From NCBI GenBank assembly GCA_025839675.1, contig CP104013.1, forward strand, positions 1,290,001 through 1,322,000: a stretch of DNA of 32,000 bases. The letters run 5' to 3'. The DNA comes from Candidatus Lokiarchaeum ossiferum. GTDB taxonomy: Archaea; Asgardarchaeota; Lokiarchaeia; Sigyniarchaeales; Promethearchaeaceae. The notes under the pieces are model-generated. The model did no database searches, was not told the origin of the DNA, and saw only the letters and a program-made list of their open reading frames with translations. This document shows, one piece after another, positions 2,275-25,207 of this stretch; position 1 is the first letter of the stretch, and each line of letters begins with the position of its first letter. Made by a program: the position numbers and the translations under genes.

Positions 2275-3924
2275 CTAAAATTGATTTCTTTTAAGAACTC
2301 CTTTTAGAAAATCCAACATTTCCAACAATTGTCGAAACTTTCCAATTTTCTCCACATATTGCTTTTTTCCTTCAGAGGATCTTAAAATCGATAATAATAT
2401 CCCAGTAGTCTTTTCTGGAGCAAAATACGTTGCATTATCGAATTTTATACGGATTTTTGTTCCCTTTGCTAAATAGTATCGATAAAAATTAAGATACTCA
2501 TACCGGAAATCCTTGCGAAAATCTTCATCAGCGATTATTTCATCATTTTCAGCGATCATACTCATATTTTGCCAAAGATATTCTAAGAAATCAAGAAAAT
2601 CACCATAATATTCCTTTTTTTTATCGAAATAACTAATATTGAGTAAAAATTTCAATGTAATTTTTCCATGGTCTACTATAGAACTATTTTTTTCAATTTC
2701 AATTAGTAAAAACTTCAGAATATCAAAAAGGATTTCGTGGATTAATGCTAAATTATAAGTTTGGTCCAAATTAGGAATTGAAGGAAGAATTTGTTTAAAT
2801 TTCTGATATTTTTCAGGGAGAAACATTGAAGGTTTATTCGAGTATAAAAATTTTGCAAATTTTTTGAAATCTGACAAGGCACTATAATTGATCATAGCAA
2901 ATGTTTTTTTTCCTATTTCGGATGATATAGCCCCAGAAGTTTTCTTTGAATCTCTCGGTGGTTGATAAATATTTTTCTGTGACATTTTAAGAAATCCGTG
3001 TAGTAACCGCTCAATAGTAGATAGGAGAAATTTTGTTCCACTGAATCCAAAACTTTGCTTCTCAGAATTACCTATGATTGTTCCATCCCCATCAAAAGAT
3101 CCTCGAATATAATCAGGTATTAAATGAGTGGGAACAGTATCTTCTGCCGCAATATCTGAATCCCAAGCATCTTTCAAAATTGTAATTGATTTGGAATAAT
3201 TTTTAATCTGTTTTTCAAATTCCATTTTTTCTCTTGGAGATGGATTGAAGAGAGATTTTAAAGTATCGTCTGATAGAGGGAAGTTCAAATCCCTTGAAAA
3301 AACGGCATATTTCTGTTCTCCAATATCAAATTCAGTCGCGGGAAATTTCAATGCATGTGATTTTAAGCGACCGGGAATCATTCCCTTGTTAATTAAATCA
3401 TAATAAATGGACTTCTTAAGAATACTCAAGCTCAAATTATATGTTCCGTGTACTTTATTCCAATGAAAATAGATTTTATGATTGCTTCCCATCAAAGCAC
3501 GAATTTTATAGAGCCAATGAATATCTGAGAAAGAACTAGTGATCTCTAATTGATAATTTCGCTTATTTACTTCAGTTCGAAGGGATCCATCTGCTCCGAT
3601 GACACCCAAAATATACGCTTTTTCAGGAGTATCAATTACTGCAAAGAAACTTTCATCAATTGAATATTTTCTCCCTCCAGTATAAGTTGGTGGCAGAAAA
3701 ATCGAATACTTAGAACGATTATTGAATAAAGTTTCCCATTTCTCCCCTTTTTTGATTTTCACAATTTTCTTATAAAATGCATTACCAGAAAATATAATCA
3801 CGGCACATCCAATTCCTTTTTGTATAATTTTATTCATTTGAGATTCACGATTTATTAAATTTTTTGTCAGATTTCCCCTATTGCACAAAATTTGAATTGA
3901 ACTCAGTGATATATTATAAATCAA
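2275..3924 (-). CDS. Free-standing double-motif LAGLIDADG-family endonuclease-like protein with a long helical C-terminal extension
   Basis: Two LAGLIDADG-type motifs are present: AYILGVIGADGSL and DYIRGSFDGDGTI. They are separated by about 170 residues, longer than in typical single-chain two-domain enzymes. About 250 further residues have no motif I recognise. The track start is TTG at 3924. An internal ATG (MNKIIQKG) at 3837 is an alternative start. Confidence 0.7.
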   Translation of the reverse strand: MIYNISLSSIQILCNRGNLTKNLINRESQMNKIIQKGIGCAVIIFSGNAFYKKIVKIKKGEKWETLFNNRSKYSIFLPPTYTGGRKYSIDESFFAVIDTPEKAYILGVIGADGSLRTEVNKRNYQLEITSSFSDIHWLYKIRALMGSNHKIYFHWNKVHGTYNLSLSILKKSIYYDLINKGMIPGRLKSHALKFPATEFDIGEQKYAVFSRDLNFPLSDDTLKSLFNPSPREKMEFEKQIKNYSKSITILKDAWDSDIAAEDTVPTHLIPDYIRGSFDGDGTIIGNSEKQSFGFSGTKFLLSTIERLLHGFLKMSQKNIYQPPRDSKKTSGAISSEIGKKTFAMINYSALSDFKKFAKFLYSNKPSMFLPEKYQKFKQILPSIPNLDQTYNLALIHEILFDILKFLLIEIEKNSSIVDHGKITLKFLLNISYFDKKKEYYGDFLDFLEYLWQNMSMIAENDEIIADEDFRKDFRYEYLNFYRYYLAKGTKIRIKFDNATYFAPEKTTGILLSILRSSEGKKQYVEKIGKFRQLLEMLDFLKGVLKRNQF

Positions 3925-4759
3925 ATTGAAATATTACTTATTCAATTTTACCCACCCAAATCACATTTAGATGATTATAATCACATATAATGAAAATATA
4001 TTTCCATAGTTAGTTAATTTTTCAAATATTATCAACTGAATTTTATTTCATACTTTTTTCGCAAGTATAATCTGATATACCCAAATAACCATAGACATCC
4101 CACCTATAAAAAGCTATTTGATCATATTTAAGAATTATTTCCACTCATTCATATCCTATATTTTACTATTCATTCACTTTCAACCCTTAATATCACTAAA
4201 ATACCCCTTCAATATTTTTACCTTAAGAAGTGTTTTGAATTTTGAATAAAAACTCATTTAGTTTAAGGTCATTTTGCCTAACACAAGTCTAATCTGGAAA
4301 ATTTTAGCTCTTAAATTGTAAAAATATATAATAAATTTTAACGCATTTTTGAATTGTGCTGTAATATTTACAATTAGGCCTAACGAAAGCATTGCATTAG
4401 GAGTCTTTTGATAGAAATTAATTTATCAACATTATCCCACCCGAACGATTGATCATAGGTTTCCATCAAGACTGATTTTCACCTTTAAATACTCAAACTT
4501 TAAAAACGACCAAAATCATCCAAAAATCATTTTAATCATATTTGATAAGCGATATACATGTTCTTTGAAGTTTGAATTCTCTAACTTTAAGTTCAATAGA
4601 CATGTCTTCTAAAGAGTGTAATTTAAAGAAAAAAAAACTAAACCATGAGATTGATAAACTCAAAAATTATGATTTTTAATTGGGTGCTCTCTTTTTTCTG
4701 TTCAGTTTTTTTTTATTTCTCATTTATGTTTATAATTCTTGTATCAATTAGATGAGTGT

Positions 4760-4795
4760 TTGAATCAAGATTTCTTGAATCAATATTTGATTCAA
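4760..4795. promoter_or_regulatory. Three copies of the 9-mer TTGAATCAA (two direct, one inverted) upstream of the recombinase gene; candidate recombinase or regulator binding site
   Basis: TTGAATCAA occurs at 4760-4768 and 4775-4783. Its reverse complement TTGATTCAA occurs at 4787-4795. The last two form a perfect 9-3-9 palindrome, 41 nt upstream of the ATG at 4836. Confidence 0.35.
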
Positions 4796-4835
4796 ATACT
4801 TTGGTATTTGGAACAAATTTTCGAGTGATTGGAAA

Positions 4836-5258
4836 ATGAAAGTTTTTGCATATTACAGGATAAGCCCTAATCCGAGAAAAAATACTCCAGAGAATAATCA
4901 GATTAATGAGATTGAAAGTTATTCCTTACAAAAGAACATCGAAATTGTTAAGGAATATAAAGATTTACTTGTTTCTGGTAAAATTATTAATCAAAAGGGG
5001 TTTAATGAAATGCTAAGCAATTTATCAAAAGTAGATGGAAATATCATTTATGATGTATCTCGCTTTGGTAGAAATGCTAAAGAAGCGATTCCGTTATTTA
5101 TCAATATTCTTAGCATGAAGAAGGCTATTAAATTTGTCAAAGATAATAAAACTCTTGATTATTCAGATAGTTCAGATATGTCAATTTGGGAAATGTTAGT
5201 TCCAATAATTGAGCTATTTCAAGCAGAAGAATACATCAAAAATCTTCATATTATGTAA
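4836..5258 (+). CDS. Serine recombinase (resolvase/invertase family), catalytic domain only, apparently C-terminally truncated
   Basis: The protein shows KVFAYYRIS (catalytic Ser motif YxRxS) and IIYDVSRFGRN (the conserved D-x-SR-x-x-R motif). It ends within the E-helix region (ELFQAEEYIKNLHIM). At 140 aa it has no HTH DNA-binding domain. Confidence 0.7.
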   Translation: MKVFAYYRISPNPRKNTPENNQINEIESYSLQKNIEIVKEYKDLLVSGKIINQKGFNEMLSNLSKVDGNIIYDVSRFGRNAKEAIPLFINILSMKKAIKFVKDNKTLDYSDSSDMSIWEMLVPIIELFQAEEYIKNLHIM

Positions 5259-5305
5259 AATTGGCATCCCTTCCCTCCATCAAAATCACCATTGAATTAA
5301 ATAAA

Positions 5306-8300
5306 TTAAGCAATATCCCACATTTTCCTTGATATTTTAACATCTTCATCGACCGAATTCTTTAAATCTTTTAGCCAACTAATAATTTCTTTATTTGTTG
5401 CTTCTTGTATCCAATTTTCTATTTGGTTATATTCTCTAGAATATCCAGATTTAATATCCATACCAGAATATGAGCGGACAGTGGATAAAAAACTTCTAAA
5501 TATGTTATAGTTAAAATCAGTATTATCCTTGAATTTCAAAATTAATCTTTGATATACTGGATTAAATAATTGCTCAGATGATGATTTTTGCAATAACCTT
5601 CCTATTAGTTTCCCTAAAGATTTTGGATTAATTCTATATAATTTCACCAATTGTTCAAAATTAAATTTATTTAAAATATCTATATCTCCAGATATTTCAA
5701 ATTTTATTAGGACACTATGAAGTTTTGTATATTCTTCCAGCATTGATTCTTGAAACATCAGAGTTAATATATTATAGATTTCATCCTTAAATTCCCCCAT
5801 TGCTGATGTTAGAAATCCAGTAGATTCATACTCTGAAATTGAAAAACCCGTAATTAACCAAGGATTAAATAAATCAGGTTCTTTTTTCCCACATTCAATT
5901 AGAAAAGGAAAAGAATAGGTTTTTTTGAGAATATGTTCAGAAAATTTATGAAATTCCTTTAAAAAGGTTTGGGAAAAAAGATTATTTAATATATCTGGAT
6001 ATTTCTTGTATACTTCCTCAATTCTTATTAAATATATATTAAGGTCGTCATCTTCTGAGTACTTTCTCATTTTTGAAAAGTTAAATTCTTGAGAGCTTAG
6101 CTTCTTAATACTATTAACTAGAAAATTTCGAATTTCCCCTATTGGTATTTCAAAATTGAAATCTTTTATGACAATTAGAGTTAAACAAGGTTCTATATCA
6201 ATCTTTTGTGTATTAATCATTAGTTTAAATTTATTCCAAAGATTTAACGAAAAAATCTGAGGGATAAACAGAAATTTTTCCCTATAACTAACCAATTTTG
6301 GATTATCCCACAAATCTTCAAAAACTGAATCAAATATTTCCTTGTTTTTCACTTGAAGCGAGTATAAGAGACTTATTAGAAAATCTGAAGTATTTGCCAC
6401 ATTATCTACTTTTTCTATTAAATTGGTAAGAAATGAGATTTGTTGGACTAATTCATGTGGATCATATTTTTTTGCAAAAAACTCTCCGAATTCTCGGCTA
6501 CCCTTAAAATTTTCTTCTAATATTAATCTATAAATCTGATCCCTATTGATTTTTTCAAGCTCTAATAGTTTTGAATGGACATTTTCATATATTTTAAATA
6601 ATTCTGCCTTTCTAGTATCCCTGTCCCTATATTTATGAAATAAATCCATTGAATAAAGATCATAATCGAAATATTTCCTAAAATAATCTTCTGTGGAGAG
6701 ATTTTCTTCTAATTGCTCATCAAAAGTTAAAATTTCTTGAAGAGTGGTTTGATCATAACCATTTCTCCAAGAATCATATGCTTTTAAATTTCTAATGTGA
6801 TCCCTAAAAATATCTCTATATTTAGATTCATTACTGAATTCCCTACTTAGAAATTCAGATATTGAATGCCAAGGTATATATTTTGTCCAAAAAATTAAAT
6901 TACTGATTAAATATCTAAAAATTTCTTCTTTATAAGTCATATTACTAATCTCTTTATAAAACTGCATAAGATAGAAGAAATTCTTCTTTCGATAATCCTC
7001 TAAATTTTCAATTTCGGGATCGATTCTTGTATGATTAAATCTAATTGAAAAATTATCCATTCTTGAAAATGTATGCCATTGAAGTTCCATAAATGTTTTT
7101 AATGCAAGAATTTTCAATTTTATAAATGCATTTTGATATTTCTCAGGCCAACTTTGAGTATTCTTGAGATTTTTAATATAATTCCATCTTGTTTCTAACC
7201 TAACGTCTCCAATTAAACAGTGGCAATTCTCTGTAAATTGATCTAACCCAATTCTTGCTGAATATCCATAGGAATGTTCTTCATATTTTTTTATATTTAC
7301 CAGATATATCATGCTAAATTTTTTTAAGATTTCCATTGATTTCTCAAAAAAAATTTCATACTTTGCAACTTTTGATAAAAACCATAGAATAGGTTCTTCT
7401 GGACTTCTAGGTTCGTATATATTGCTTTGAAATGGAAAAAGTTCATTTAAATCATCTAATGATATTCTTTGGAACCAATCGTCAAGAATCTCCATTGATT
7501 CTCCTTTAAAGACGTATGATAATTGTGAAAAAATTTCACTTTTCGTTTTATCTCTCAAAATTAAGATGTTTTGAAAAGGGCCATTTTCATCATAAAATAG
7601 ATGACTGATTATTCCAGAATACGACTGATTTAACATACTCGTATTGCATATTTTTGACATAAACTCTTTTAAGTAAAAATCACTGGGTTGTTCATTCAAA
7701 TAATTAAAGATATTTGAAAAAAAATCATAATCTTCTTTGATTTCATTAATTGTATCAATTAAAATACTATTGGAACATATAGTGTAAAAATTTCCAAATT
7801 TACTTAAGATATTAGTTGTATTTTTAATTAGAATATCGAAATAATTTTGGATCTCTTCATCAGATAATGTCTTATTTATTAAATCTTTAACTATCGGTCC
7901 TATATTTTCAAATTTTTCATTTTCATTGAAATAAAATTTAGAAAACAATGAAAACAACATAATAATTTTTTTTAATTCTCCCGATTTGGTTGAAGGAAAA
8001 TATTGTTCTATGTATTTTAACCTAAATGGTGTAGTGAAACTAAGGAAACTTATAATTTCTTGAATAATCCTATTTAAAACGGAATCAATGTAATAATAGG
8101 ATTCTTCATCTTTTACTTCATATTCATAAAAAGTAATATCGACTAATTTTGTTATATTTTCTTCTTCTTTTTCATTTTTTTTTGATGATTTTAACGGAGG
8201 TTTTAATCCAATTACAATAATATCTAGCATCTTTATGAGTCCTAATAAGTAAGTTAACCAAGGATCCATTGCATCATCTAAAATTAGAACGATGTCTGAT

Positions 8301-8947
8301 TTTCGAAAAATTGTTCTTAAAAATATAGGTTTAATATTCATTCTACTATTGATTGAATAAAACTTGAATCCATTTTGTTTCGCAAAATGTCTTAAATACT
8401 TCTCAGTTTCTTGAAAATGTATTTTTTCTTGTTCTTTCTCCAAGGATTCTTGTTTTTCATCAATTTTTATGTTATTAATTACATATAATCGAGATTTTAA
8501 GGAATTTTCGTCATTCAAAAGTAAATTTAGAGCTAAAGTAGTCCTAATATGCTGTTTCTGAGTTAAACTTATATTTTCATCAATCTCTAACTCGCATCGA
8601 CCCTGATCAAAATCCAGTGGTCTATAATTTAGTGTGACATGTTCTATTTCCATTATTTTTTTTTTTGATATAAATGCTATCTTATATTGGGCATTATTTT
8701 TTCTCTCCAATATGGTATTTGGAGTATCAAATTTATCCCAATAAAATATCTCGATTCCATTTAGGAAGTTAAATGCTTCTGAGATAATAATTCGGTCGTC
8801 AAAGGCATTGATAAAATTATTGTGGATGGGATAGAATAAGATGTCATTTTCTTCAATCTTATCCTTCAGAAATGTTGATTTATTTTTATTTTCGTCTTGA
8901 AATTCTTTAATTAATTCGATTAAAATTTCTTTGTTCTTTTCATTCAT
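5306..8947 (-). CDS. Large (1213 aa) protein of unknown function, predicted mostly helical, translationally coupled to the upstream phosphoesterase
   Basis: This is a long uninterrupted ORF in 20-25% GC DNA. Its ATG (8947..8945) overlaps the stop of the upstream gene in ATGAATGA. I found no Walker A (GxxxxGK[ST]) and no other catalytic motif by eye. Confidence 0.85.
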   Translation of the reverse strand: MNEKNKEILIELIKEFQDENKNKSTFLKDKIEENDILFYPIHNNFINAFDDRIIISEAFNFLNGIEIFYWDKFDTPNTILERKNNAQYKIAFISKKKIMEIEHVTLNYRPLDFDQGRCELEIDENISLTQKQHIRTTLALNLLLNDENSLKSRLYVINNIKIDEKQESLEKEQEKIHFQETEKYLRHFAKQNGFKFYSINSRMNIKPIFLRTIFRKSDIVLILDDAMDPWLTYLLGLIKMLDIIVIGLKPPLKSSKKNEKEEENITKLVDITFYEYEVKDEESYYYIDSVLNRIIQEIISFLSFTTPFRLKYIEQYFPSTKSGELKKIIMLFSLFSKFYFNENEKFENIGPIVKDLINKTLSDEEIQNYFDILIKNTTNILSKFGNFYTICSNSILIDTINEIKEDYDFFSNIFNYLNEQPSDFYLKEFMSKICNTSMLNQSYSGIISHLFYDENGPFQNILILRDKTKSEIFSQLSYVFKGESMEILDDWFQRISLDDLNELFPFQSNIYEPRSPEEPILWFLSKVAKYEIFFEKSMEILKKFSMIYLVNIKKYEEHSYGYSARIGLDQFTENCHCLIGDVRLETRWNYIKNLKNTQSWPEKYQNAFIKLKILALKTFMELQWHTFSRMDNFSIRFNHTRIDPEIENLEDYRKKNFFYLMQFYKEISNMTYKEEIFRYLISNLIFWTKYIPWHSISEFLSREFSNESKYRDIFRDHIRNLKAYDSWRNGYDQTTLQEILTFDEQLEENLSTEDYFRKYFDYDLYSMDLFHKYRDRDTRKAELFKIYENVHSKLLELEKINRDQIYRLILEENFKGSREFGEFFAKKYDPHELVQQISFLTNLIEKVDNVANTSDFLISLLYSLQVKNKEIFDSVFEDLWDNPKLVSYREKFLFIPQIFSLNLWNKFKLMINTQKIDIEPCLTLIVIKDFNFEIPIGEIRNFLVNSIKKLSSQEFNFSKMRKYSEDDDLNIYLIRIEEVYKKYPDILNNLFSQTFLKEFHKFSEHILKKTYSFPFLIECGKKEPDLFNPWLITGFSISEYESTGFLTSAMGEFKDEIYNILTLMFQESMLEEYTKLHSVLIKFEISGDIDILNKFNFEQLVKLYRINPKSLGKLIGRLLQKSSSEQLFNPVYQRLILKFKDNTDFNYNIFRSFLSTVRSYSGMDIKSGYSREYNQIENWIQEATNKEIISWLKDLKNSVDEDVKISRKMWDIA

Positions 8948-9998
8948 TTATTCTTGCACCATCCTTCAAATTGTTTTTTAAAGTTGAAATATCCAATCCC
9001 ATAATTTCAATTCTTTTAATAATATCATCAGTAGGAACCGACCATCTTCTAAATTTATGATTATACACCCATTCTTCCTGATTATTATCCCAAGCTATTA
9101 AAGAATATTCTACTGATCTGCCTCGCATGAATTTCAACAAACAGCATTTATTTGGATAATTTTTTTTTGAAAATGTAGAACCAAGTTTGAGATGAAGAGT
9201 TTCAGAATCGGGATATATGATAATATTCTCATTGTCTCTGGTTTCATGTTCATGTCCAGTTATTAAAACATGAGTTTTTCTCCTAATTCTGTCAAAATCG
9301 TTGTCTTTCTTCCTATTATCAGCAAACCAGCGTTTCGGATGATGAAAAAGAGTAACAACAAATGGTAATTCTTCTCGGTCAATTCTATTTTTGTTTTGGA
9401 GAACTGAAAAAAATAAATCTCCTAGCCATAATTTTTTTTTATCTGTAGAAGAATTTTTACTAAACCAACAGGAATTTAAAGATATAAAATAGATCTGTCC
9501 AATTTTTCTAAAACCAAATAAGTAATTCTTATGATACTTCCCATGTTTGTCACCATATTCAAACTCTGGTATTTTTAAGTCTTTACTCATAAAAGAAATG
9601 TAATCTTCAAAACCTGAAAAATAATGATCTAGGTTTGTTTCTAACTCGTTTTCTACTTCATCTTTATCATCAATGTAGTCAATAATATGTGATTTACTTC
9701 GAAGTCGATCATGATTACCTGGTGTTATTAATAAATTCTCCATTGGAATAGATAATTCACTTAGAAATTTGTCAAGCCAATCTTTTTTAAAATGCAAATA
9801 ATCATCATTACTTCCATAATAAGCTATATCACCTACAATAACACAGATATCGGGTTTTGATTCATCTGGAAGAGTCTTAATTTGATCAATTAATTTATCT
9901 AAGCAAATCATCCTCTTGCTGAAATTTGCATCATTTGGGTCTTTTGACTTATAAGATGTAAAATGAATATCAGAAAGACACAGAACTACATTTTCCAT
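8940..9998 (-). CDS. Calcineurin-like metallophosphoesterase
   Basis: All five canonical motifs appear in order: LSDIHF (DxH), VGDIAYYG (GDxx), PGNHD (GNHD/E), LFHHP (H) and ITGHEHE (GHxH). Confidence 0.85.
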   Translation of the reverse strand: MENVVLCLSDIHFTSYKSKDPNDANFSKRMICLDKLIDQIKTLPDESKPDICVIVGDIAYYGSNDDYLHFKKDWLDKFLSELSIPMENLLITPGNHDRLRSKSHIIDYIDDKDEVENELETNLDHYFSGFEDYISFMSKDLKIPEFEYGDKHGKYHKNYLFGFRKIGQIYFISLNSCWFSKNSSTDKKKLWLGDLFFSVLQNKNRIDREELPFVVTLFHHPKRWFADNRKKDNDFDRIRRKTHVLITGHEHETRDNENIIIYPDSETLHLKLGSTFSKKNYPNKCCLLKFMRGRSVEYSLIAWDNNQEEWVYNHKFRRWSVPTDDIIKRIEIMGLDISTLKNNLKDGARINE

Positions 9999-10306
9999 TT
10001 TTTTATTTAATAATTTATTTTGACTATATATTAGCTTTCGTCTCGGTAAGAAAAAACATGGAATTCTATTTTTTTTATAATCAATTTTTGGGGAATATAG
10101 GAAAAAAGGAACAACTTTTCAACTGTCCCTTTTCTATTCTAATTTACAAACAAATCCTTATAACTATTGTTAAGTAAACTCACCAAAATTGTCAAAATAG
10201 AATAAGCAAAAAATAATGTTACAAGATAAAGCGCTGAGGCATTTTTCCAGTAAATTTCTTCAATAGGTTCTCTAAAGGGAGTGAATTTATCATTATTTTA
10301 ATTATA

Positions 10307-12283
10307 TTACTCTAAATATTGTTTTAACTTAGAAAATGAACCAAATACGGAAGGATACCTTTTAATTCTCTCTTTAAAATTCATCTCTACTTTTATATCA
10401 CATTTTTCAAAGTATAGTTCAGTATTCAGATCAATCCATTCATAAACAACTATGAAACATTCAATTTCATGATGTGGATATAATTTCTTCAAAGCTTTTT
10501 TCTTTTTGATTAGTTGTTTAATAATTTCTTCCTTACTATGCACAAAATATTTACACTCATAGCATGAAAGTACATTTTCATCTTTCAAAATATAAATATC
10601 AATTTCTTCGCCATAAATACTTTTTCCCCAAGATATTTCAAAATTGGGATATTTATTTGTATACCATTGATATACAACTGCCTCGAAAGCAAAACCCTTT
10701 CTTTTGTCTATATCCATTTCTAATTTTTTTAACTTATCTTTTTGAGAATGTATAATTGAATATTTGGTTTTTCCCTGAAGATATTTAAGCAAGATATCCA
10801 TTTTTAGATGAATAACATCAAGGGTTATAATCAAAAGGTTTGAATTAATGGTATCCATGATATTTTTATAAAGTGAAGGTCCAAATCCATGATAACCATA
10901 GGTAGCTACATTGAAGAAAAATAACCAACCTGAAAAATCAGAACCAATAGTTCCATAGCCTTCCATCAATACTGCAACTGAAATATCACCTGAAGTTCCA
11001 TCTTCGTGCTTAAAAATTTTTATTTGTAGCTTATTCTCAAAATTTTGATTCTTTCTTCTAAATATCTCACCTCTAATTAGCGATAAGCATGTGTAATAGC
11101 CATTGAATAATGTGTCATTTCCTTCCAATACATCCACTTTATACCAAAATAACTTCTGATCCAAAATATGAGATATTTGTTTTTCAGACATACCATCATT
11201 GATTTCTTCAATTTCATGTTTCTTTGAAAAAAAGGGCATAACAATCTCTTTTTTAATTGGACATTTCCATTTAACTAGTTCAATTAACGAAAGATAGGAA
11301 AGCTGAGATTCGTAATTTTGAATTAATTGCCTTATTCCTTTAAAAGTCCACGATATTAAGGACCAAATCATATTTACCATTATCTGCTTGCTTATTTTTT
11401 CGTTTGTAATTTGTTCGTCGTAAGGAGACAAGAACCTACTCCAAAATGAAAAATTAGATTCGAAATCTGTATCAGTAAACTTCTTGATCTGAGAAGTTAT
11501 AATTTTCAGCCCAGAGTTAATTGTTTTAATATTTTTTTTCTTATTTCTTTTGAAATCTTCTGGAATTCCCATTTCATGTTCTTTATACAAGTTTTCTATG
11601 GATTTTGAAATAAAAAAGTTAGATATTTCCCCATAATTTGATTTTAAGATTGAAACGGTGTTTATCAAATTGACTAAATTATTTTTCTTAATTAAATCGC
11701 TATATTCAATAATTTTAAATTTATCAATAAGAAATTTGATCGTAATAAGATAACCGGAGATTATTTTGAGAATAAAAATTCCGGTTAGTTTAGTTTGGTT
11801 AAACTTATTGAAAAAAATATTAGGTTCTTTGTGATCTACGGTTAAATAATCTAATAGTTCGTAAAATTCAATAATTTTTATTTTTTTACTAATATCTCCA
11901 TCTAATAGATATCCATTTTCAGATATATAAGCTAATAAAACATCAATAAACTTATTTATCAAAGTGATATGTTCTTTGATTTCATCAAATGATTTAGCTT
12001 TTCTTATTTTTCTTCCTAAATTAATTAATCCTTTAATAAATTGAATTCTCTCACAATTTTCGGGGATATCATTCAAATTTACTTTGTTAGAATAGAAACC
12101 TCTCAAGAAATTTTTATTATATTCTAAATCTAAGATTTCATCATTATCAATTTCCTTAATAACATTTGACCAAGAAAGATTCAAAATAAATTTATATCCA
12201 AAAAAAATTTCCTTCGTTTGGAAAATTTCAAGGTTATGAGTATAATAATTTATATAATTCAAAAACTCATCAACATAACACAT
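10307..12283 (-). CDS. 658-aa protein with a C-terminal PD-(D/E)xK (restriction-endonuclease-fold) nuclease-like domain; the N-terminal about 500 aa are unknown
   Basis: The C-terminal region reads KGFAFEAVVYQWY...GEEIDIYILKDENVLSCYECKYFV. This gives a helix Glu, then a D on a beta strand, then E-x-K, which is the classical PD-(D/E)xK arrangement. Confidence 0.6.
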   Translation of the reverse strand: MCYVDEFLNYINYYTHNLEIFQTKEIFFGYKFILNLSWSNVIKEIDNDEILDLEYNKNFLRGFYSNKVNLNDIPENCERIQFIKGLINLGRKIRKAKSFDEIKEHITLINKFIDVLLAYISENGYLLDGDISKKIKIIEFYELLDYLTVDHKEPNIFFNKFNQTKLTGIFILKIISGYLITIKFLIDKFKIIEYSDLIKKNNLVNLINTVSILKSNYGEISNFFISKSIENLYKEHEMGIPEDFKRNKKKNIKTINSGLKIITSQIKKFTDTDFESNFSFWSRFLSPYDEQITNEKISKQIMVNMIWSLISWTFKGIRQLIQNYESQLSYLSLIELVKWKCPIKKEIVMPFFSKKHEIEEINDGMSEKQISHILDQKLFWYKVDVLEGNDTLFNGYYTCLSLIRGEIFRRKNQNFENKLQIKIFKHEDGTSGDISVAVLMEGYGTIGSDFSGWLFFFNVATYGYHGFGPSLYKNIMDTINSNLLIITLDVIHLKMDILLKYLQGKTKYSIIHSQKDKLKKLEMDIDKRKGFAFEAVVYQWYTNKYPNFEISWGKSIYGEEIDIYILKDENVLSCYECKYFVHSKEEIIKQLIKKKKALKKLYPHHEIECFIVVYEWIDLNTELYFEKCDIKVEMNFKERIKRYPSVFGSFSKLKQYLE

Positions 12284-12770: not shown

Positions 12771-13463
12771 TTATTTTTTCGAATTAAATACCCATAATAG
12801 AAAATCTTCATCCCCGCGGGTCTTGCCCAAATAAAAACTAGGAATCTTATATTTCACAGAGATTTCCAGCAAACGAATGGTGAGTAATTTCGTCAAGGGA
12901 GTCAAATCGAGAATCACATTGGAATCTTTTTGCTCTGACTGGATGAGAGATTCCAAATTTTGAAAAATGGAACTATCATCATTACGATATTCTAAATAAG
13001 GATATTCATGGACGACATCAAAAGTCTCGAATTTTTTGGCGTCTTTAAGGTTGGATTTGGGGGTGACAAACGCTACGATCCGAGAAATGACATAGCCTTC
13101 TTTTTGGAGAAGGGCTTTAGATTTGAGGGGAATTTCATAGGAGGGGCCAAAAGTAGGGCTATCCAGACCAAATCCGGTGATAAGCGTATAATGATCCTTA
13201 GAGATCCCAAGGAGGGAACGAACCCGTTGTATAGCATTGGGATGAATCGCAATTTCATTCAAGGACACATTACCAACGGTTGCCAAAGTTTTTTTTGTGA
13301 TTAAATCCGCTTCTTCTAACTTATTTAAATTATAGAGAAGACCTGCCCCCGAAATGCCAATAGCCATAGCAAGATCTTTTTGCTGGTAAGGTTTTTTCTC
13401 CAAAAGAGCCAGAATATGGAGTTGCTTGTCATTTAAATGGTAGTTAAAAGTGCGGTTAAACAT
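12771..13463 (-). CDS. Transcriptional regulator: N-terminal wHTH fused to a C-terminal Csa3-like CARF domain
   Basis: The N-terminus is ArsR/MarR-like: LHILALLEKKPYQQKDLAMAIGISGAGLLYNLNKLEEADLI. The C-terminal half has alternating beta/alpha pattern with YTLITGFG after strand 1 (compare Csa3 FVTMGF). It also has VILDLTPLTK, which fits the CARF strand-4 signature [DN]x[ST]xxx[RK]. Confidence 0.5.
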   Translation of the reverse strand: MFNRTFNYHLNDKQLHILALLEKKPYQQKDLAMAIGISGAGLLYNLNKLEEADLITKKTLATVGNVSLNEIAIHPNAIQRVRSLLGISKDHYTLITGFGLDSPTFGPSYEIPLKSKALLQKEGYVISRIVAFVTPKSNLKDAKKFETFDVVHEYPYLEYRNDDSSIFQNLESLIQSEQKDSNVILDLTPLTKLLTIRLLEISVKYKIPSFYLGKTRGDEDFLLWVFNSKK

Positions 13464-13510
13464 TTGAATCTAATGATAATTGGTCACAGCAAGACTTTAA
13501 AGATTTCTTT

Positions 13511-13546
13511 AATCGCCGTTAAAAAAAAATTAAATAGCCGTTAAAA
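13511..13546. promoter_or_regulatory. Two 14-nt direct repeats, AAT[C/A]GCCGTTAAAA, spaced 22 nt start to start in the divergent intergenic region; candidate operator
   Basis: aatcgccgttaaaa is at 13511-13524 and aatagccgttaaaa at 13533-13546, with one mismatch. They lie between the wHTH-CARF gene (start 13463, minus) and the Smr gene (start 13647, plus). Confidence 0.4.
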
Positions 13547-13646
13547 TTATTCTTAAATACCATTAATGAGTTTATTTAATCGTGAAATTTGAGGAATTTA
13601 ACTTTGAATTCGATCAACTTATCACAAAAAATGGGAGGATGAGAAA

Positions 13647-13937
13647 ATGCAGATCGACTTACATGGATATAACTTGGCCGAAGCCATTGAAGACGTGTGC
13701 TGGAGGGCAACCGAAGCGGTACAAAGTGGAGATCATGTTTTGGAAATTGTGCATGGATTCCATCGTGGACAGGTCCTACAAACTCATTTCACTTCGTATG
13801 CCTTCAAGCAGGAAATGCAACGAATTGGAATCCAAATTCAGTATGACCCCGCGTCGTCCGACGAGGGGTTCTCAGTGTTTACAATGACCGCGCTAGCCCA
13901 TCACATACCACATCAAAAGACCTACATAGGGAGGTGA
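13647..13937 (+). CDS. Smr (small MutS-related) domain protein
   Basis: MQIDLHGYNLAEAIEDV...GDHVLEIVHGFHRGQVL matches the Smr pattern LDLHG...EA...hhIIHGxGxG. GGAGG at 13634-13638 lies 8 nt before the ATG. The overlapping ORF 13582..13887 in another frame has no recognisable features. Confidence 0.65.
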   Translation: MQIDLHGYNLAEAIEDVCWRATEAVQSGDHVLEIVHGFHRGQVLQTHFTSYAFKQEMQRIGIQIQYDPASSDEGFSVFTMTALAHHIPHQKTYIGR

Positions 13938-13947
13938 ACACACAGAC

Positions 13948-14082
13948 ATGGCAAAAAAAGCAATGGATAAAGCCGCCGCTCGACGGATCCAATCCGCTCA
14001 AGATAAGAAGGGAGCGAAGGGGGATGCACGATTCAAAAGTGTAGCCCAAAGTAAAGCGGCCAAAAATACCCAAAAGAAATAA
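13948..14082 (+). CDS. Small (44 aa) basic hydrophilic protein, MAKKAMDKAAARRIQSAQDKKGAKGDARFKSVAQSKAAKNTQKK
   Basis: It starts 11 nt after the Smr stop, with GGAGG at 13930-13934, and is followed by a strong hairpin plus T-run. From memory it weakly resembles the IQSA...AQSAA repeats of SMP-type hydrophilins. It falls below the ORF-track size cutoff. Confidence 0.4.
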   Translation: MAKKAMDKAAARRIQSAQDKKGAKGDARFKSVAQSKAAKNTQKK

Positions 14083-14096
14083 ACGGGGTTTTTTTT

Positions 14097-14127
14097 AGGA
14101 TAGAAGGTTGCTTCTATCCTTTTTTTT
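14097..14127 (+). terminator. Intrinsic-terminator-like hairpin with a T-run
   Basis: aggatagaag (14097-14106), loop gttg, then cttctatcct (14111-14120) form a perfect 10-bp stem. T7 follows at 14121-14127, directly after the small ORF. Confidence 0.6.
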
Positions 14128-14154
14128 GTGTTTGTTAGAGAAGGAGAAAGCGAA

Positions 14155-14436
14155 ATGTATTTACCAGAAAAGAAACGAATTCACGATCCAAACACCGAAG
14201 TGGCCATTTTTTGGGATTATGAAAATATTCGGGTGGTCGCAAAAGGCATCAAGGTTCCATTAGCAGAAGCCTTGGATGCCTATACAGCAAAAATCGGATT
14301 CTTGCGTATTAAAAAAATCTACTCCGATTGGACCGATATCAATAAGGCAATCATCAAGGCCATGTATATGCTCTTATTGATATTTAACTTGTGGAACATT
14401 AGAGGAAAATGTATTTTGCGGAAGAATTTTATATAA
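14155..14436 (+). pseudogene. NYN-domain gene 5' fragment: N-terminal about 70 codons, then unrelated AT-rich tail
   Basis: MYLPEKKRIHDPNTEVAIFWDYENIRVVAKGIKVPLAEALDAYTAKIGFLRIKKIYSDWTDINKAIIKAMY carries the first NYN motif (hhWDxEN). After position 14368 the sequence turns AT-rich and similarity to the full copy ends. AGGAG at 14142-14146 precedes the ATG at 14155. The track's earlier GTG at 14128 is less likely. Confidence 0.6.
14206..14368 (+). repeat. Left copy of a 163-nt diverged direct repeat (NYN codons about 18-71)
   Basis: Hand alignment with 16288-16450 at a constant offset of 2082 gives 26 mismatches in 163 positions and no indels. Confidence 0.85.
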
Positions 14437-14496
14437 AGTTTAAATTTCACAAACAGATTATTATTATAATTTAGAATTCCCAAAAGGTAAACCATC

Positions 14497-16197
14497 TTGT
14501 TAAAAAAAACACAAATCAGAATTATCTCTTCAATATTTTTCTTATTATTCTTATTTTCCTTTGATTCAACATTTATTTTTTTAAACTCATCAAAATTAGA
14601 AAAAAAAAGAGGACTCATAATTAAAAAGAATATTGGAGGATGTAAATCTAATAACAAACAACAGGATCTTCCAACAGATGAAGAAAAATTAGGAGGATTG
14701 CTGATTTCCACTTATTTTGGAGGAAGCAATATGGAGTCAAGTAAAATGATCGTAGATGAAATGGGATATATATATATTGGAGGCGTAACTAGGAGTAAAG
14801 ATTTCCCAACAACTCATGGAGCATTAAATAGAACACATGATAGTTTTACAGAAATATTTATCTGCAAATTTAATAATGATTGTTCGAAATTGATTTATTC
14901 CACTTTTATTGGAAGTTCTGATGGAGATTATTTATCTGATTTAGCAGTTGATAATTATGGATGTGTTTACATAACAGGTTCAACAAATCAATCAATTTTT
15001 CTTAATGATTCAGTAATAATTCCCCCCAGAATAGAGGTTCCAGAAGTTTCAGGTAATTCAGATATTTTTATTTGCAAAATCAATAATAAAGGCACGGATA
15101 TGGAGTACTCCACACAAATGGGGGGATTAAGAAATGATTACGCCATAAGTATTATCATAGATGATGATAATTGCACATATATTACAGGTACGACTGAGAG
15201 TTATAATTTTCCATCCACAAATGGAGCTTATGATGAAAGTCACAATGGTAACAAGGATGCTTTCATATGTAAATTAAATAATAATGGAACCGATTTAGAA
15301 TATTCAACATTTTTAGGAGGATCTAACACTGATCAAGGATTAGATATAACAATTGATGACTTCAGAAATGTATATATTACTGGTTATACCTTCCACTATG
15401 AAGGTACACTTTTTCCAACAACAGATGGAGCTTTTAATCGGGATCATGGAGGTCAATATGATGCTTTCATTTGTAAAATGAATAGCGATGGCACGGATTT
15501 AATTTATTCTACATTAATAGGAGGGAGAGGAGAAGAAAAAGGACATGCAATTTGGGTAGATAATGAATATTGCGCATATATAACAGGGTACACAAATTCA
15601 TGGCAAGATTTTCCTATTACAGATGATTCATATGTTTCAAATTCTTTGGGACAGAATGATGTCTATGTATTCAAGTTAAATCCAGAAGGAAGCCAAATAG
15701 TTTATTCTACATTAATTGGAGGATCAGATTGGGAAACGGGATTAGCAATATGTGTAGATTCTTTTGGTTACTCTTATGTAACTGGAAAAACTATGAGCAA
15801 AAACTTTCCTACAACTCCAGGCGCAATTGATGGAAAACATAATGGTCGAAGAGATGTCTTCCTATTAAAATTAGACCAAAATGGAACACAAATAGATTAT
15901 TCCACATATCTCGGTGGATCAGAATATGATGAAGGTAATAGCATTGCAATGTGTAATTCAGGTACAGTCATAATTTCAGGAGAAACAGCATCACATGATT
16001 TTCCAACGACTAATGGTTCATTTCAAGAAATACAAAGTGGTAATTATGATATTTTTTTTAGCAGAATTTATGCAAAATCAAATAATGAAAAGAAAATTCA
16101 AAGTTTTCGAATTCAGTCCATAAGTATTATTAGTATCATTTCAATATGGGCAATCACTTATATAAAGAGAAAAAAGCTTAAATTTATGAGGACCTAA
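14497..16197 (+). CDS. Surface or secreted seven-bladed beta-propeller protein (SBBP-type repeats) with an N-terminal signal/anchor and a C-terminal TM anchor
   Basis: Seven repeats follow the pattern YSTxhGGsxxDxGxxIxVDxxGxxYITGxTxSxxFPTTxGAxxxxxxGxxDxFhxKLNxxGxxL. The N-terminus is hydrophobic (IISSIFFLLFLFSF) with a TTG start. The C-terminus reads ISIISIISIWAITYIKRKK. Confidence 0.8.
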   Translation: MLKKTQIRIISSIFFLLFLFSFDSTFIFLNSSKLEKKRGLIIKKNIGGCKSNNKQQDLPTDEEKLGGLLISTYFGGSNMESSKMIVDEMGYIYIGGVTRSKDFPTTHGALNRTHDSFTEIFICKFNNDCSKLIYSTFIGSSDGDYLSDLAVDNYGCVYITGSTNQSIFLNDSVIIPPRIEVPEVSGNSDIFICKINNKGTDMEYSTQMGGLRNDYAISIIIDDDNCTYITGTTESYNFPSTNGAYDESHNGNKDAFICKLNNNGTDLEYSTFLGGSNTDQGLDITIDDFRNVYITGYTFHYEGTLFPTTDGAFNRDHGGQYDAFICKMNSDGTDLIYSTLIGGRGEEKGHAIWVDNEYCAYITGYTNSWQDFPITDDSYVSNSLGQNDVYVFKLNPEGSQIVYSTLIGGSDWETGLAICVDSFGYSYVTGKTMSKNFPTTPGAIDGKHNGRRDVFLLKLDQNGTQIDYSTYLGGSEYDEGNSIAMCNSGTVIISGETASHDFPTTNGSFQEIQSGNYDIFFSRIYAKSNNEKKIQSFRIQSISIISIISIWAITYIKRKKLKFMRT

Positions 16198-16287
16198 CAA
16201 AAAGAGTTTATCGCAGGGCTAAAAATAATTTGCACATTTAAACTAACCAATAGTAGCATCCATTTTTTCATTATATTTTCCCTCAAA

Positions 16288-16450
16288 ATTATTTGGGATT
16301 ATGAAAACATCCGGGTGGTCGTGAAGGGGATTGAAGTACCTTTAGCGGAGTCCCTAGATGCCTATACAGCAAAAATCGGATTCTTGCGGATTAAAAAAAT
16401 CAACTCCGATTGGACCAATGTCAATAAAACAATCCTTAAAGCCATGTATA
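16288..16450 (+). repeat. Right copy of the 163-nt diverged direct repeat
   Basis: See 14206-14368. The copy begins abruptly at the AT-rich/GC-richer boundary. Confidence 0.85.
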
Positions 16451-17055
16451 GTCTCGGATTTGAACCAATTCAAGTATCCATGGGCAAAACTAATAGCGTG
16501 GATGTCAAAATTGCAGTGGATTGTCTGGACACCGCGCAATTAATCCCCAGCATTAGCACGTATATTATTGTCACGGGAGATAAGGATTTCATCCCGGTCA
16601 TTAATTGGCTAAAATCCCACAAAAAACGTGTGATTATCATTGGAAAGGCGGATTTGGTGAGCGATCATCTCCTCCTAAGTGCGAATGATTTTATTTCCCT
16701 CGAAGAACTCTCGAAACTGGAAAAACAACAGAAATCCTCGAAAGAAAATGGAAAGCAAAAGTTAACCATTTCATTTACGGAAGCAGTGAAATGTTTGGTT
16801 CAGAGTATTCACCAATTGCATTCCAAGGGCAAACCAAGTCGTTTTTTAACCTTAGATAAGTACATGCGAAGTTTGGATCAATTCAATTATCGGGGGGCCG
16901 CTTCGATAGAAAAACCCAATGGAAAGGGAAATTTTACATCCTTTACCAATTTGGTGAAAATGGCGGAAAGTCAAGGCAAAGTGAAATCCATTACGGTAAA
17001 TGGGTTCCGAGAAATTCGAGTCAATCCATCCAAAAAAGAGAAGAAAAAAGCATAG
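16315..17055 (+). CDS. NYN (LabA/limkain-b1-type PIN-like) domain protein with a C-terminal OST-HTH/LOTUS-like domain; no proper 5' end
   Basis: TYIIVTGDKDFIPVINWLKSHKKRVIIIGK is the typical NYN C-terminal motif. The C-terminal about 90 aa (FTEAVKCLVQSI...FTSFTNLVKMAESQGKVKS) resemble OST-HTH. Homology including IIWDYENIRVV extends upstream to 16288, but no ATG, GTG or TTG exists in frame before the GTG at 16315. Translation from that GTG would lack the first catalytic Asp. Confidence 0.7.
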   Translation: MVVKGIEVPLAESLDAYTAKIGFLRIKKINSDWTNVNKTILKAMYSLGFEPIQVSMGKTNSVDVKIAVDCLDTAQLIPSISTYIIVTGDKDFIPVINWLKSHKKRVIIIGKADLVSDHLLLSANDFISLEELSKLEKQQKSSKENGKQKLTISFTEAVKCLVQSIHQLHSKGKPSRFLTLDKYMRSLDQFNYRGAASIEKPNGKGNFTSFTNLVKMAESQGKVKSITVNGFREIRVNPSKKEKKKA

Positions 17056-17067
17056 AGAGACACCGTC

Positions 17068-17742
17068 TTATTTTTTGGCGCTTCGAGTTTTTTTGAAAAT
17101 TTTCGGACGGGAACGACCATCTTTCTTCACCAGAGACCCCATAAAATCTTGAAATTGATTGACCAGATCCGGGATATTTTTCTCGGTGATTTCCTTCGAT
17201 TTTAATTGCACATTATGGAAAAATTCTTCAATGGGTTTGCCCGTCGCCAGGATTTTTTCAAACTGACCAGTAAATTTAAGATGACCGGAACTCGCCTTGG
17301 CATGCTCTTGGTCACGTTTTTCTTGAATGAGGGTATCAACAGGAATTTGAAGAAGTTCCTGCACAACTCGGCTGGACAATAAGGCAAAAGCAGATAGTTT
17401 ATCGGTCTCAACCGTTAAACCATTCCCGCGGTGATACATGTCGTTGCGAATCGTGTGATAGAATGTTAGCTGCTTAATCGTCGCTTCGGGTAAAATTTGG
17501 GGGGAGATTTCCGACACCAATTCGAGTTTACCCGGATACGAATTGCGCACCCGTTTATATTTCTTCCAATTGACTTTTTCATTGGGCACTCGAAAATGAA
17601 TGAATGCATTCAAGCTGGCTTCAACGGCATTATCAAAACTGATCATCGCTAACCGCTGATCAAAATCTGACTCCTTTCCCATATGATCATAGCCGTGCCA
17701 CAGTAATTCAATCGGGCCCGAGATCCACGGTTTGTTTTGCAT
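17068..17742 (-). CDS. Putative HEPN-domain protein (RNase-like)
   Basis: TFYHTIRNDMYHRGNG contains R-N-x-x-x-H, the Rx4-6H HEPN signature with the typical Asn after Arg. The N-terminus is helical (GPIELLWHGYDH...ISFDNAVEASLNAF) and the C-tail is Lys/Arg-rich. The gene is convergent with the NYN gene, 12 nt apart. Confidence 0.45.
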   Translation of the reverse strand: MQNKPWISGPIELLWHGYDHMGKESDFDQRLAMISFDNAVEASLNAFIHFRVPNEKVNWKKYKRVRNSYPGKLELVSEISPQILPEATIKQLTFYHTIRNDMYHRGNGLTVETDKLSAFALLSSRVVQELLQIPVDTLIQEKRDQEHAKASSGHLKFTGQFEKILATGKPIEEFFHNVQLKSKEITEKNIPDLVNQFQDFMGSLVKKDGRSRPKIFKKTRSAKK

Positions 17743-24490: not shown

Positions 24491-25207
24491 TTAGTACTTT
24501 TGCAGATATTCATAATTCAAAGCAATTGAATGAATTATGGATCTGAAACTCTCATTAATAGAGTAGAAAAGAGAACGTTTTTTTTGCTTCTTTCTAACAA
24601 TTCCAGTATCCTCAAGTATTCGTAAATTATACAGTGTAGTACTTCGAGCCATTTTAGTATATTGGGAAATCAATTTTTGATCTAAGGTGTGATATTCTGT
24701 TAAAATCTCCAATATGAACCGAGTTGTCGATTTTAAATACAATACACTAGCTTGAACTAATTTAAATGAAGTATCAGGTTTGAAATATACATAAAATTGG
24801 TTAAACTTTTGTTCTTTAATTAATTTGGAATCCTTCAAAACGTTTAAATGCCATAGCAGTTGGTTTGGTCCAACATCAATTTTTTTTCGTAAAAAATTCA
24901 GATGTAAACCAGGATATATAGATAATAATTTCATAATTTTTAGTCTGATGGAATTAGATAATACATTTAGGGAGATTTTATTATCTTGCATAAATAGATA
25001 ACCTGCTCGAATATATTTTTCAAGTAAGTTCCGAACATAGGATAAATGATAACAAAAATGTCTAGCAATTTGATGAATTAGAGCATCAAAATATAAAACT
25101 TTTTTTTTTGGAAAAATACGTTGAATATATTGAAAAACGGGATTAGTGCTAATATTTGCACGATATACTAAGTAAGATTCATTTTGAAAGGTCATTCGAA
25201 TAATCAC
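24491..25207 (-). CDS. Multi-wHTH transcriptional regulator (ArsR/TrmB-like)
   Basis: IRLKIMKLLSIYPGLHLNFLRKKIDVGPNQLLWHLNVLKDSKLI is one ArsR-like HTH. A second unit reads LDQKLISQYTKMARSTTLYNLRILEDTGIV. The start is GTG at 25207, or ATG at 25195. Confidence 0.7.
   Translation of the reverse strand: MIIRMTFQNESYLVYRANISTNPVFQYIQRIFPKKKVLYFDALIHQIARHFCYHLSYVRNLLEKYIRAGYLFMQDNKISLNVLSNSIRLKIMKLLSIYPGLHLNFLRKKIDVGPNQLLWHLNVLKDSKLIKEQKFNQFYVYFKPDTSFKLVQASVLYLKSTTRFILEILTEYHTLDQKLISQYTKMARSTTLYNLRILEDTGIVRKKQKKRSLFYSINESFRSIIHSIALNYEYLQKY

Follow-up and report, generated by a model that had tools for sequence, protein, structure and literature searches.

CARF domains act as receptors for the signals of type III CRISPR systems, and CARF transcription factors, among them Csa3, have been described in cas loci. 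Csa3 recognizes palindromic promoter sites and has the pocket motif, [DN]x[ST]xxx[RK], that is described below. The BrxR/CapW regulators of bacterial defence islands have a conserved palindromic operator at their own promoter, and RtcR is proposed to sense RNA ends. Viperin is the Asgard defence gene most discussed in connection with the origin of eukaryotic immunity. We have analyzed a 32-kb stretch of the genome of Candidatus Lokiarchaeum ossiferum B-35 (referred to here as the window, to which all coordinates refer unless a locus is named) that encodes a regulator, NEF87_001054, with a winged helix-turn-helix (wHTH) followed by a CARF domain. The genes treated are NEF87_001052 to 001060; the products of NEF87_001052, 001054, 001055, 001058 and 001060 have exact entries in a public protein collection. 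We found no mention of this Asgard wHTH-CARF family in the searchable, non-exhaustive literature.

We propose, with a probability of about 0.6, that NEF87_001054 is a CARF-sensing one-component regulator that operates away from CRISPR genes and controls defence cassettes, acting as a dimer on a pair of operators and responding to a nucleotide ligand. What is new is the Asgard clade located away from cas genes (in L. ossiferum even in genomes for which the absence of CRISPR arrays is reported), its operator, and its link to viperin, CD-NTase and RNase cassettes. The homologous loci are numbered L001 to L043, and the neighbours of the regulator were examined in roughly 30 loci of the Asgard type. 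Locus L001 is that of the sister strain B36 (CP163304.1), which shares 96-98% nucleotide identity with B35 across shared blocks. The B-35 genome is 6,035,313 bp in length. A 2026 preprint that deals with strain B36 states that CRISPR arrays are missing from both L. ossiferum strains and that pVip is encoded elsewhere in the B35 genome, and CBASS is not among the systems reported for B35; the preprint also describes a virus-host system that now exists for cultured L. ossiferum.

The original prediction for this DNA, made from the sequence alone, described a regulator with an Smr, an NYN and a HEPN gene around it and no cas gene, CRISPR array or cyclase within view. All four open reading frames (ORFs) are present where it placed them and contain the motifs it quoted, and profile and array scans confirmed that no cas gene, CRISPR array or cyclase is found in the 32-kb window. 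The domain assignments and the supposed unity of this gene set fared more variably, as described below.

The regulator and the CARF_m5 family

The regulator gene occupies 12771-13463 on the minus strand and encodes a protein of 230 amino acids, in which profile, fold and motif comparisons place a wHTH at about residues 10-85 and a CARF domain at about residues 90-228. The N-terminal winged helix passes the Pfam HTH_24 model (25.0 bits, with a cut-off of 21.9). The PADLOC model PDLC01987, named CARF_m5, matches residues 36-214 with an E-value of 2e-15 and is covered from position 29 to position 188 of 195. A structural model was obtained with AlphaFold2 (AF2) from an alignment of 24 homologues and has a pLDDT of 90.1 and a pTM of 0.85. 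When compared to the PDB with Foldseek, its C-terminal domain matched Csm6 (8jbc and 5fsh), Cam1 (8t66), Can2 (7bdv), the Crn1 ring nucleases Sso2081 and Sis0455, and Cdn1, with E-values from 2.5e-5 to 1e-3 and a probability of 1.0; the N-terminal domain matched MarR/ArsR repressors.

The 24 aligned homologues are 41-60% identical and are Asgard proteins in all cases where an organism is given (Loki-, Hel-, Hod- and Sigynarchaeota). Invariant among them are G99, within TLITGFG, and D186, T188 and K192, within DLTPLTK. The protein therefore displays both the CARF superfamily fold and the pocket motifs of the superfamily, in which strand 1 is followed by a Gly/Ser/Thr-rich loop and strand 4 by [DN]x[ST]xxx[RK]. 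Residues L42, Y44, H45 and L49 of the winged helix show little or no variation, in keeping with the conserved operator described in the next section. NEF87_001054 belongs to the CARF superfamily and, within it, to the minor family CARF_m5. The ligand of its CARF domain is predicted, from the pocket motif and from the relatives of the protein, to be a nucleotide.

The original prediction had assigned the C-terminal half of the protein to CARF and was to be abandoned if this domain did not model as such. The CARF_m5 match, the confidence of the AF2 model (pLDDT 90), the Foldseek matches and the invariant DxTxxxK motif all bear the assignment out, and the fold obtained is that of a CARF domain. 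The HTH-first order was also described correctly. This order is inherent to CARF_m5, and since that catalogued family shares it, it is not a novelty of NEF87_001054. The label "Csa3-type", on the other hand, is wrong at the family level. Membership in Csa3 was rejected since TIGR01884 scores only 11.8 bits (E-value 0.11) against a cut-off of 60.2 and aligns with the HTH only, the PADLOC Csa3 models likewise match the HTH only, and the domain order is reversed.

CARF_m5 is a rare family, with 99 clusters at E-values of 1e-3 or below among 1.84 billion representatives. Its name presumably follows the 2020 CARF census. The Asgard homologues match the CARF_m5 model with E-values between 6e-11 and 8e-17, and a Thermoprotei protein, L021, does so with an E-value of 8.8e-22. 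The matches extend over positions 4-191 of the profile, and the wHTH-then-CARF order is found in L021 and in every Asgard homologue tested. A sequence search found no solved structure that covers the CARF part of any family member.

L021, the best-scoring CARF_m5 member found, lies inside a CRISPR-cas locus with Cas1, Cas2, Cas4, Cas6 and a ring nuclease as neighbours. A second relative, L020 from Hydrothermarchaeum, of which only the CARF part was found, adjoins Cas10 (E-value 3e-111), Cas5, Csx7 and Cas1. The pocket motif D-x-T-x-L-[ST]-K-L (DLTPLTKL) is identical in the Asgard proteins and in cas-linked L020 and L021, and the pocket is therefore presumably still under selection. Because these distant members sit in type III CRISPR-cas loci and have the same pocket motif, the comparison argues that the ancestral ligand of the family was probably a type III cyclic oligoadenylate (cOA). 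No cas genes were seen beside the approximately 30 Asgard-type copies examined.

Several other ORFs in the window gave partial or marginal matches to related models. Three proteins, encoded at 24491-25207 (minus strand), 26779-28176 (plus strand) and 29554-30300 (plus strand), match only the winged-helix part of the Csa3/CasR models. A 300-aa ORF at 28248-29150 exhibits a very weak match to CARF3 (E-value 0.005).

The operator

About 30 Asgard loci have a 14-bp GC-cored pseudo-palindrome, TTAAYSGCSRTTAA, upstream of the regulator gene, within spacers that are otherwise AT-rich. This pattern was derived by aligning the upstream DNA of 13 non-redundant loci, the proteins of which share only 36-60% identity. 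Bases T2, A3, A4, G7, C8, T11 and T12 are invariant and A13 nearly so; TAAnnGCnnTTA is the predicted recognition core. The sites usually occur in pairs 22-23 bp apart, about two helical turns, and in the homologous loci the operator is followed after about 7 nt by a TATA-like sequence, TTTAAAG or TTTAATAG. The operator was looked for in cas-linked L020 and L021 and is absent from both.

In the window, operator O1 (13509-13522) reads TTAATCGCCGTTAA, an exact match to the family pattern that scored 19.6 bits in a leave-one-out analysis and is the top site of the 32 kb. Operator O2 (13531-13544) reads TAAATAGCCGTTAA, with two mismatches; it lies 22 bp from O1 and is the second-best site in the window (12.7 bits). 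These two are the only matches in the window, and both fall in the 183-bp spacer between the divergently oriented regulator and Smr genes. The regulator gene has a putative TATA-like box, TTTAAAG, at 13495-13502 on the minus strand, 6 nt from O1, and the same arrangement of site, spacer and TTTAAWAG recurs in homologous loci. The candidate box for the Smr operon, TTAAATA, is at 13553-13559 on the plus strand, 8 nt after O2.

The distribution of the pattern was examined in three ways. A scan that allowed up to two mismatches showed about 100-fold enrichment in the 200 bp upstream of the regulator, with 18 hits (6.9 per kb) there and 12 (0.069 per kb) elsewhere. With a leave-one-out position weight matrix (PWM) run over loci of 5-32 kb, the best site of the locus fell at -30 to -73 in 10 of the 13 loci (at -50 to -73 in nine of these), and in two further loci the upstream site was a close second. 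Of 22 metagenome loci in a test set that had no part in training, 19 contain a site between -47 and -74 that scores 14.7 bits or more. These test loci comprise about 102 kb, and 32 of the 35 sites in them that reach at least 13 bits are located at -47 to -74.

High-scoring sites are also found at some other positions. L014 has an additional operator, 89 nt in front of a Zc3h12a gene located 5 kb from the regulator. Four loci (L003, L008, L022 and L025) have a second high-scoring operator at +816 to +846, approximately 150 nt after the stop codon of the regulator; its coordinates are 5648-5661 in L003 and about 7814 in L008, and it is at about +833 to +841 in L022 and L025. The gene behind this operator is HerA/FtsK-like in L003 and ThiC-like in L008, and the recurrence of the site suggests that the downstream gene may also be regulated in that clade.

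L016 (JANBVM010000002.1), which is labelled Patescibacteria, contains a decayed regulator split into two ORFs and has no operator above threshold; the contig is probably a mis-binned Asgard contig.

Cargo genes in L. ossiferum and in other Asgard loci

The gene that faces the regulator across the operators is NEF87_001055 (13647-13937, plus strand), a putative stand-alone Smr-domain protein of 96 aa preceded by GGAGG. Its IDLHG and IVHG (IVHGFHRG) motifs align to those of the MutS2 Smr domain 2zqe with an E-value of 0.8, and its UniRef name is Smr-domain protein. An Smr protein is a plausible assignment for this ORF; the part of the earlier Smr claim that concerns the motifs was upheld, whereas the profile score falls just under the Pfam cut-off. 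In B36 the recorded gene call for this region, L001 9527-9882 (equivalent to 13582-13937 in the window), is 356 nt, which is not a multiple of three, and joins a 101-aa GTG ORF to the Smr ORF in another frame. The 96-aa ORF, which begins MQIDLHG and has GGAGG upstream, looks like the real Smr gene.

Ten nucleotides after Smr is NEF87_001056 (13948-14082, plus strand), which encodes a conserved Lys/Ala-rich protein of 44 aa (KAAxRIQS...FKxxAQ). Basic proteins of 40-44 aa with the consensus MxKxKMTxKAAxRIQSHxDKxGxNQxFKARAQxAA are encoded beside the regulator in at least five lineages: in the window and L001, in L002 (6268-6390), in L018 (7694-7822), in L019 (7700-7822) and L036 (130-252), and in L038/39 (4863-5024 in L038). 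They occur with or without an adjacent small nuclease. The 44-aa protein has no match in Pfam or NCBIfam, and a word-based homology search returned only the protein itself. Downstream of it, at 14097-14127 on the plus strand, is a 10-bp hairpin with a T7 tail and a T8 run before it. This is likely to be the end of the Smr/44-aa transcription unit, separating it from the NYN gene. Given this hairpin and the restriction of operators to the regulator-Smr spacer, the predicted direct targets are the regulator gene and the Smr/44-aa bicistron.

The partners of the regulator vary widely among the other Asgard loci. The most common divergent partner is the prokaryotic viperin gene pVip (PADLOC, E-value 1e-86), which is located 110 bp from the regulator, with both operators between the two genes, in about 10 loci (L007, L017, L026, L028-30, L032, L038/39 and L043); a pVip fragment is found in L027. 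Since both sites are held in an intergenic region of only about 110 bp, the promoter of the partner must overlap the operators. PD-T7-4 (E-value 1e-49) is the partner in L005. In L019 (8668-9498) and L036 (1144-1587) a CD-NTase-type oligonucleotide cyclase (PADLOC Cyclase, E-value 5.5e-27) lies immediately downstream of the regulator. The L019 cyclase gene overlaps that of the regulator and is followed by a 188-aa HEPN-like gene and a 411-aa gene. These two loci look like CBASS-like operons in which a CARF transcription factor replaces the sensor-effector fusion. Zc3h12a-type NYN RNases are partners in L002 and L011, and in L014 such a gene, with its own operator, is the one 5 kb away mentioned above. 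A HEPN-like family with the motif WRxxRNxIVH follows the regulator in L001, L007, L018 and L019 and lies beside it in L038/39 and L042. Other partners are STAND-like, HerA/FtsK-like and helicase genes. Taken together, the loci suggest a constant pairing of regulator and operator that is combined with exchangeable defence cargo.

The conserved four-gene island of the original prediction is not supported by these comparisons. Smr, the LabA-type NYN gene and this HEPN gene are found beside the regulator only in the two L. ossiferum strains, with no homologues beside it elsewhere, and the proposal of a conserved unit was rejected; the original prediction, taken literally, had itself named this outcome as one that would refute it. 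What does hold across Asgard archaea is the location of the regulator family beside defence and nuclease genes, including those of NYN and HEPN type. As to the suggested CARF-dependent transcriptional control of the cluster, the predicted operators face the regulator gene and the Smr/44-aa genes, none is upstream of NYN or HEPN, and the hairpin intervenes. No site with two or fewer mismatches, or above about 9 bits, was found upstream of the HEPN gene, the NYN gene or the 658-aa gene described below.

The NYN gene of B35 is interrupted. Comparison with B36 identifies a 5' fragment of a LabA-type NYN gene at 14155-14378 (plus strand), whose ORF continues into unrelated sequence to 14436. It is followed by a 1.9-kb insertion (14379-16287, plus strand; 30% GC) that carries a 566-aa SBBP beta-propeller gene (14497-16197) and is absent from B36, where the NYN gene is intact and encodes 278 aa; the original prediction does not mention the beta-propeller gene. 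The 3' fragment (16288-17055, plus strand), recognized by profile and by comparison, is without codons 1-17, and no canonical start precedes the WDYEN motif; the ORF of this fragment starts with GTG at 16315. The Pfam NYN model PF01936 matches this 3' ORF with an E-value of 4e-17 and the intact B36 orthologue with an E-value of 1e-23, and weak matches to VPA0982 and to the NYN domain of MARF1 were also obtained. The 3' ORF is without the first strand, which carries the WDYEN aspartate, and the catalytic core is not intact in B35. The earlier NYN claim is thus correct as to the domain and incorrect in treating the gene as whole. The two fragments share a 173-nt direct repeat. Its copies are 83% identical to each other, and their identity to the only copy in B36 is 95% and 88%, compared with about 98% for the DNA around them; therefore either both copies diverged unusually fast or one of them comes from a different allele. 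An OST-HTH/LOTUS domain (PF12872), which had been claimed for the same protein, was sought in the C-terminal ~100 aa and was not detected: neither Pfam nor a phmmer search of the PDB gave a match at E-values of 10 or below.

The HEPN gene, NEF87_001060, is at 17068-17742 on the minus strand and encodes 224 aa with an RNDMYH motif; the assignment comes from motif and fold. In eight homologues H96, R99, N100, Y103 and H104 of the block H..RN..YH.GNG are invariant. The AF2 model has a pLDDT of 70 overall and 80-90 over approximately the first 140 residues. Among its top Foldseek matches, 15 of 17 belong to the HEPN family (HEPN domains and toxins, the HpeT toxin-antitoxin and Csm6), with marginal E-values of 0.05-0.25 (0.05-0.1 for the best) and a TM-score normalised to the target that reaches 0.73. 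The profile scans gave no Pfam, NCBIfam or PADLOC match, and the UniRef name is "Apea-like HEPN". The HEPN assignment of the original prediction is thus moderately supported, by the invariant motif, the preponderance of HEPN structures among the Foldseek matches and the UniRef name. The homologues have a second, C-terminal RNxxxH domain that was lost from the window protein; the WRxxRNxIVH family mentioned above aligns with this second domain with an E-value of 5e-5 and 68% probability (hhalign). HEPN-MNT pairing was considered, and no minimal nucleotidyltransferase (MNT) adjoins the gene, whose neighbours are the 3' NYN fragment and an acyltransferase.

The regulator, Smr, 44-aa, NYN and HEPN genes have 38-48% GC, compared with 31% for the window, 30% for the insertion and 26% for the 658-aa gene, and the same contrast is seen in B36. 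The raised GC is compatible with a foreign origin common to these genes or with a constraint that they share. Although they lie in the same GC-rich block as the regulator, NYN and HEPN are not among its predicted direct targets.

On the other side of the regulator, the slot downstream of it is a strain-variable hot spot. In B35 (2275-12283; compare L001 10753-16447) it contains a Mrr-like gene for a 658-aa protein (10307-12283, minus strand; the UniRef name is Mrr-type restriction endonuclease), a calcineurin-like phosphoesterase gene and a 1213-aa orphan. The phosphoesterase matches PADLOC PDC-S60 and "Effector endonuclease", and its gene overlaps the orphan by 8 nt; the 1213-aa and 658-aa proteins have no profile or PDB match. 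In B36 the slot is occupied by a 602-aa HEPN-like gene and a TIR-TM gene (PADLOC, E-value 1e-50). A resolvase gene and a LAGLIDADG-like gene lie beyond the slot in both strains.

Interpretation and comparison with known systems

In the mechanism that we propose, the N-terminal winged helix would bind the 14-bp pseudo-palindrome, probably as a dimer, at the two operators of the 183-bp divergent promoter, which are separated by 22 bp and precede their TATA-like boxes by 6-8 nt. An operator upstream of each box would place both the regulator gene and the Smr/44-aa operon under control. A nucleotide bound at the CARF domain would then modulate the transcription of the regulator's own gene and of the facing cassette. 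Since the operators sit just upstream of the putative B recognition element (BRE)/TATA on both sides, as the sites of archaeal activators do, the arrangement may lean slightly to activation. The module would have left the cas genes in Asgard archaea and become a mobile switch for defence cargo that differs from lineage to lineage. The domain identities, the conserved operator with its positions and the variation of the cargo are observed; the predicted parts of this scheme are the specificity of DNA binding, the dimer, whether the regulator activates or represses, and which ligand it binds and from what source. As to the ligand, the cyclase operons of L019 and L036 suggest that it might be a CD-NTase product.

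Several points weigh against this interpretation. The main gap is a source of the ligand, as no cyclase is encoded in the window and CRISPR arrays are missing from both strains according to the preprint. The Smr/44-aa cargo of the window is without a demonstrated defence role, and the Smr match to Pfam PF01713 is itself just below threshold (25.1 bits with a cut-off of 25.7, E-value 2e-5, profile positions 1-50 of 77). There is no background rate for defence genes in Asgard neighbourhoods with which to compare the cargo. The regulator is taken as the likely binder of the operator from their co-conservation only, and the positions of the TATA-like boxes and transcription start sites are guesses. 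Part of the data on which the operator pattern was evaluated had also served to derive it, a circularity mitigated by the leave-one-out analysis and by the independent set.

The CARF domain might instead sense a ligand other than cOA, for example RNA with 2',3'-cyclic phosphate ends as proposed for RtcR, and so mediate a response to RNA damage or translation stress in which RNA-processing enzymes such as Smr and NYN are switched on. RtcR is a precedent for a CRISPR-independent CARF regulator (PMC4012209), RNase-type cargo (Smr, NYN, Zc3h12a) is found here and in L002, L011 and L014, and the reported lack of CRISPR arrays in the genome and of a cyclase in the window also speaks for such a response. 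We nonetheless think it unlikely, given that cas-linked relatives adjoining Cas10 have an identical pocket motif, and that viperin as the commonest partner elsewhere and a CD-NTase in the same operon in L019 and L036 point to antiviral cyclic-nucleotide signalling. That invariant pocket, kept in 24 proteins only 41-60% identical, would also be unexpected for a dead sensor, which is what is supposed if Smr and the 44-aa protein form a toxin-antitoxin-like pair with the wHTH protein as a mere autorepressor, its CARF domain serving dimerisation only and its ligand lost. This arrangement seems improbable to us despite the compact bicistron in which a small nuclease is paired with a very small basic protein, the exchange of Smr for Zc3h12a in L002 with the small protein kept, and the location of these genes in a highly variable neighbourhood within a mobile hot spot. 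The small protein occurs in L018, L019 and L036 without an adjacent small nuclease; and the L019 nucleotidyltransferase, whose position beside a HEPN-like gene resembles MNT-HEPN pairs, matches CBASS cyclase models (E-value 5.5e-27) and is thus more than a minimal nucleotidyltransferase.

Least probable of all, in our estimation, is a coincidental clustering in which an autoregulated wHTH protein controls only itself within a strain-variable defence and mobile-element hot spot. The proximal operator does adjoin the regulator's own promoter, the flanks differ completely between B35 and B36, a resolvase and a LAGLIDADG-like gene are nearby, and this exact combination of genes is confined to the species. 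A protein controlling only itself would not readily account for two operators arranged symmetrically, one per gene, for a pVip spacer of about 110 bp that holds both sites, or for high-scoring extra sites upstream of the L014 Zc3h12a gene and the L003 HerA/FtsK-like gene and recurrently at +816 to +846. The proposal of a ligand-responsive CARF regulator of defence cassettes can be carried further, to a general, CRISPR-independent transcription switch for Asgard innate immunity, built on a CRISPR-derived CARF sensor, in which a cyclase (CD-NTase, as in L019 and L036, or other), not Cas10, makes a cyclic oligonucleotide as the messenger, and viperin, RNases (Smr, Zc3h12a, HEPN) and the conserved 40-aa protein are switched on. 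The output of cyclic-oligonucleotide signalling would then be transcriptional and not direct allosteric activation of an effector. We regard this extension as speculative and on balance doubtful.

If true, the proposed mechanism would supply Asgard innate immunity with a regulatory logic and might connect signalling of the CBASS type with that of the CRISPR type. It would also offer a ready regulator-operator pair for genetic tools in cultured L. ossiferum.

Among described families the nearest by sequence is CARF_m5, to which the window protein is related by a nearly full-length match and by the wHTH-then-CARF order; the Asgard copies differ in that none of those examined has cas neighbours. 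Most CARF families have the wHTH downstream of CARF (PMC4012209). RtcR is a precedent for a CARF regulator that works without CRISPR (PMC4012209), but this CARF-AAA+-HTH activator of the rtcBA RNA-repair operon is bacterial, with a sigma-54 AAA+ architecture and a divergent CARF domain, none of which applies to NEF87_001054. The CARF-HEPN RNases Csm6/Csx1 and the HEPN-MNT toxin-antitoxin systems resemble the Asgard loci in bringing CARF and HEPN functions into one locus: HEPN-like genes lie beside the regulator, and the fold matches of its CARF domain include Csm6. Here, however, CARF and HEPN are on separate proteins, the predicted output of the CARF domain is DNA binding, and the HEPN gene of the window has neither an MNT partner nor an operator.

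The genomic logic of the Asgard family is most like that of BrxR/CapW, in which a wHTH is likewise combined with a ligand sensor and many unrelated defence systems serve as cargo. The sensor of BrxR/CapW is WYL rather than CARF, the Asgard family is archaeal and so far found in Asgard only, and there is no sequence relationship between the two; a parallel between CARF and WYL has been drawn before (PMC4012209). Csa3 is a one-component protein of the same CARF and winged-helix type, and its pocket motif [DN]x[ST]xxx[RK] is shown in the Asgard family. The Asgard proteins differ from Csa3 in their reversed domain order, in matching its models by the HTH only and in the absence of a cas neighbourhood. 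By analogy, the regulator would nevertheless function most like Csa3, as a CARF-gated transcription factor.

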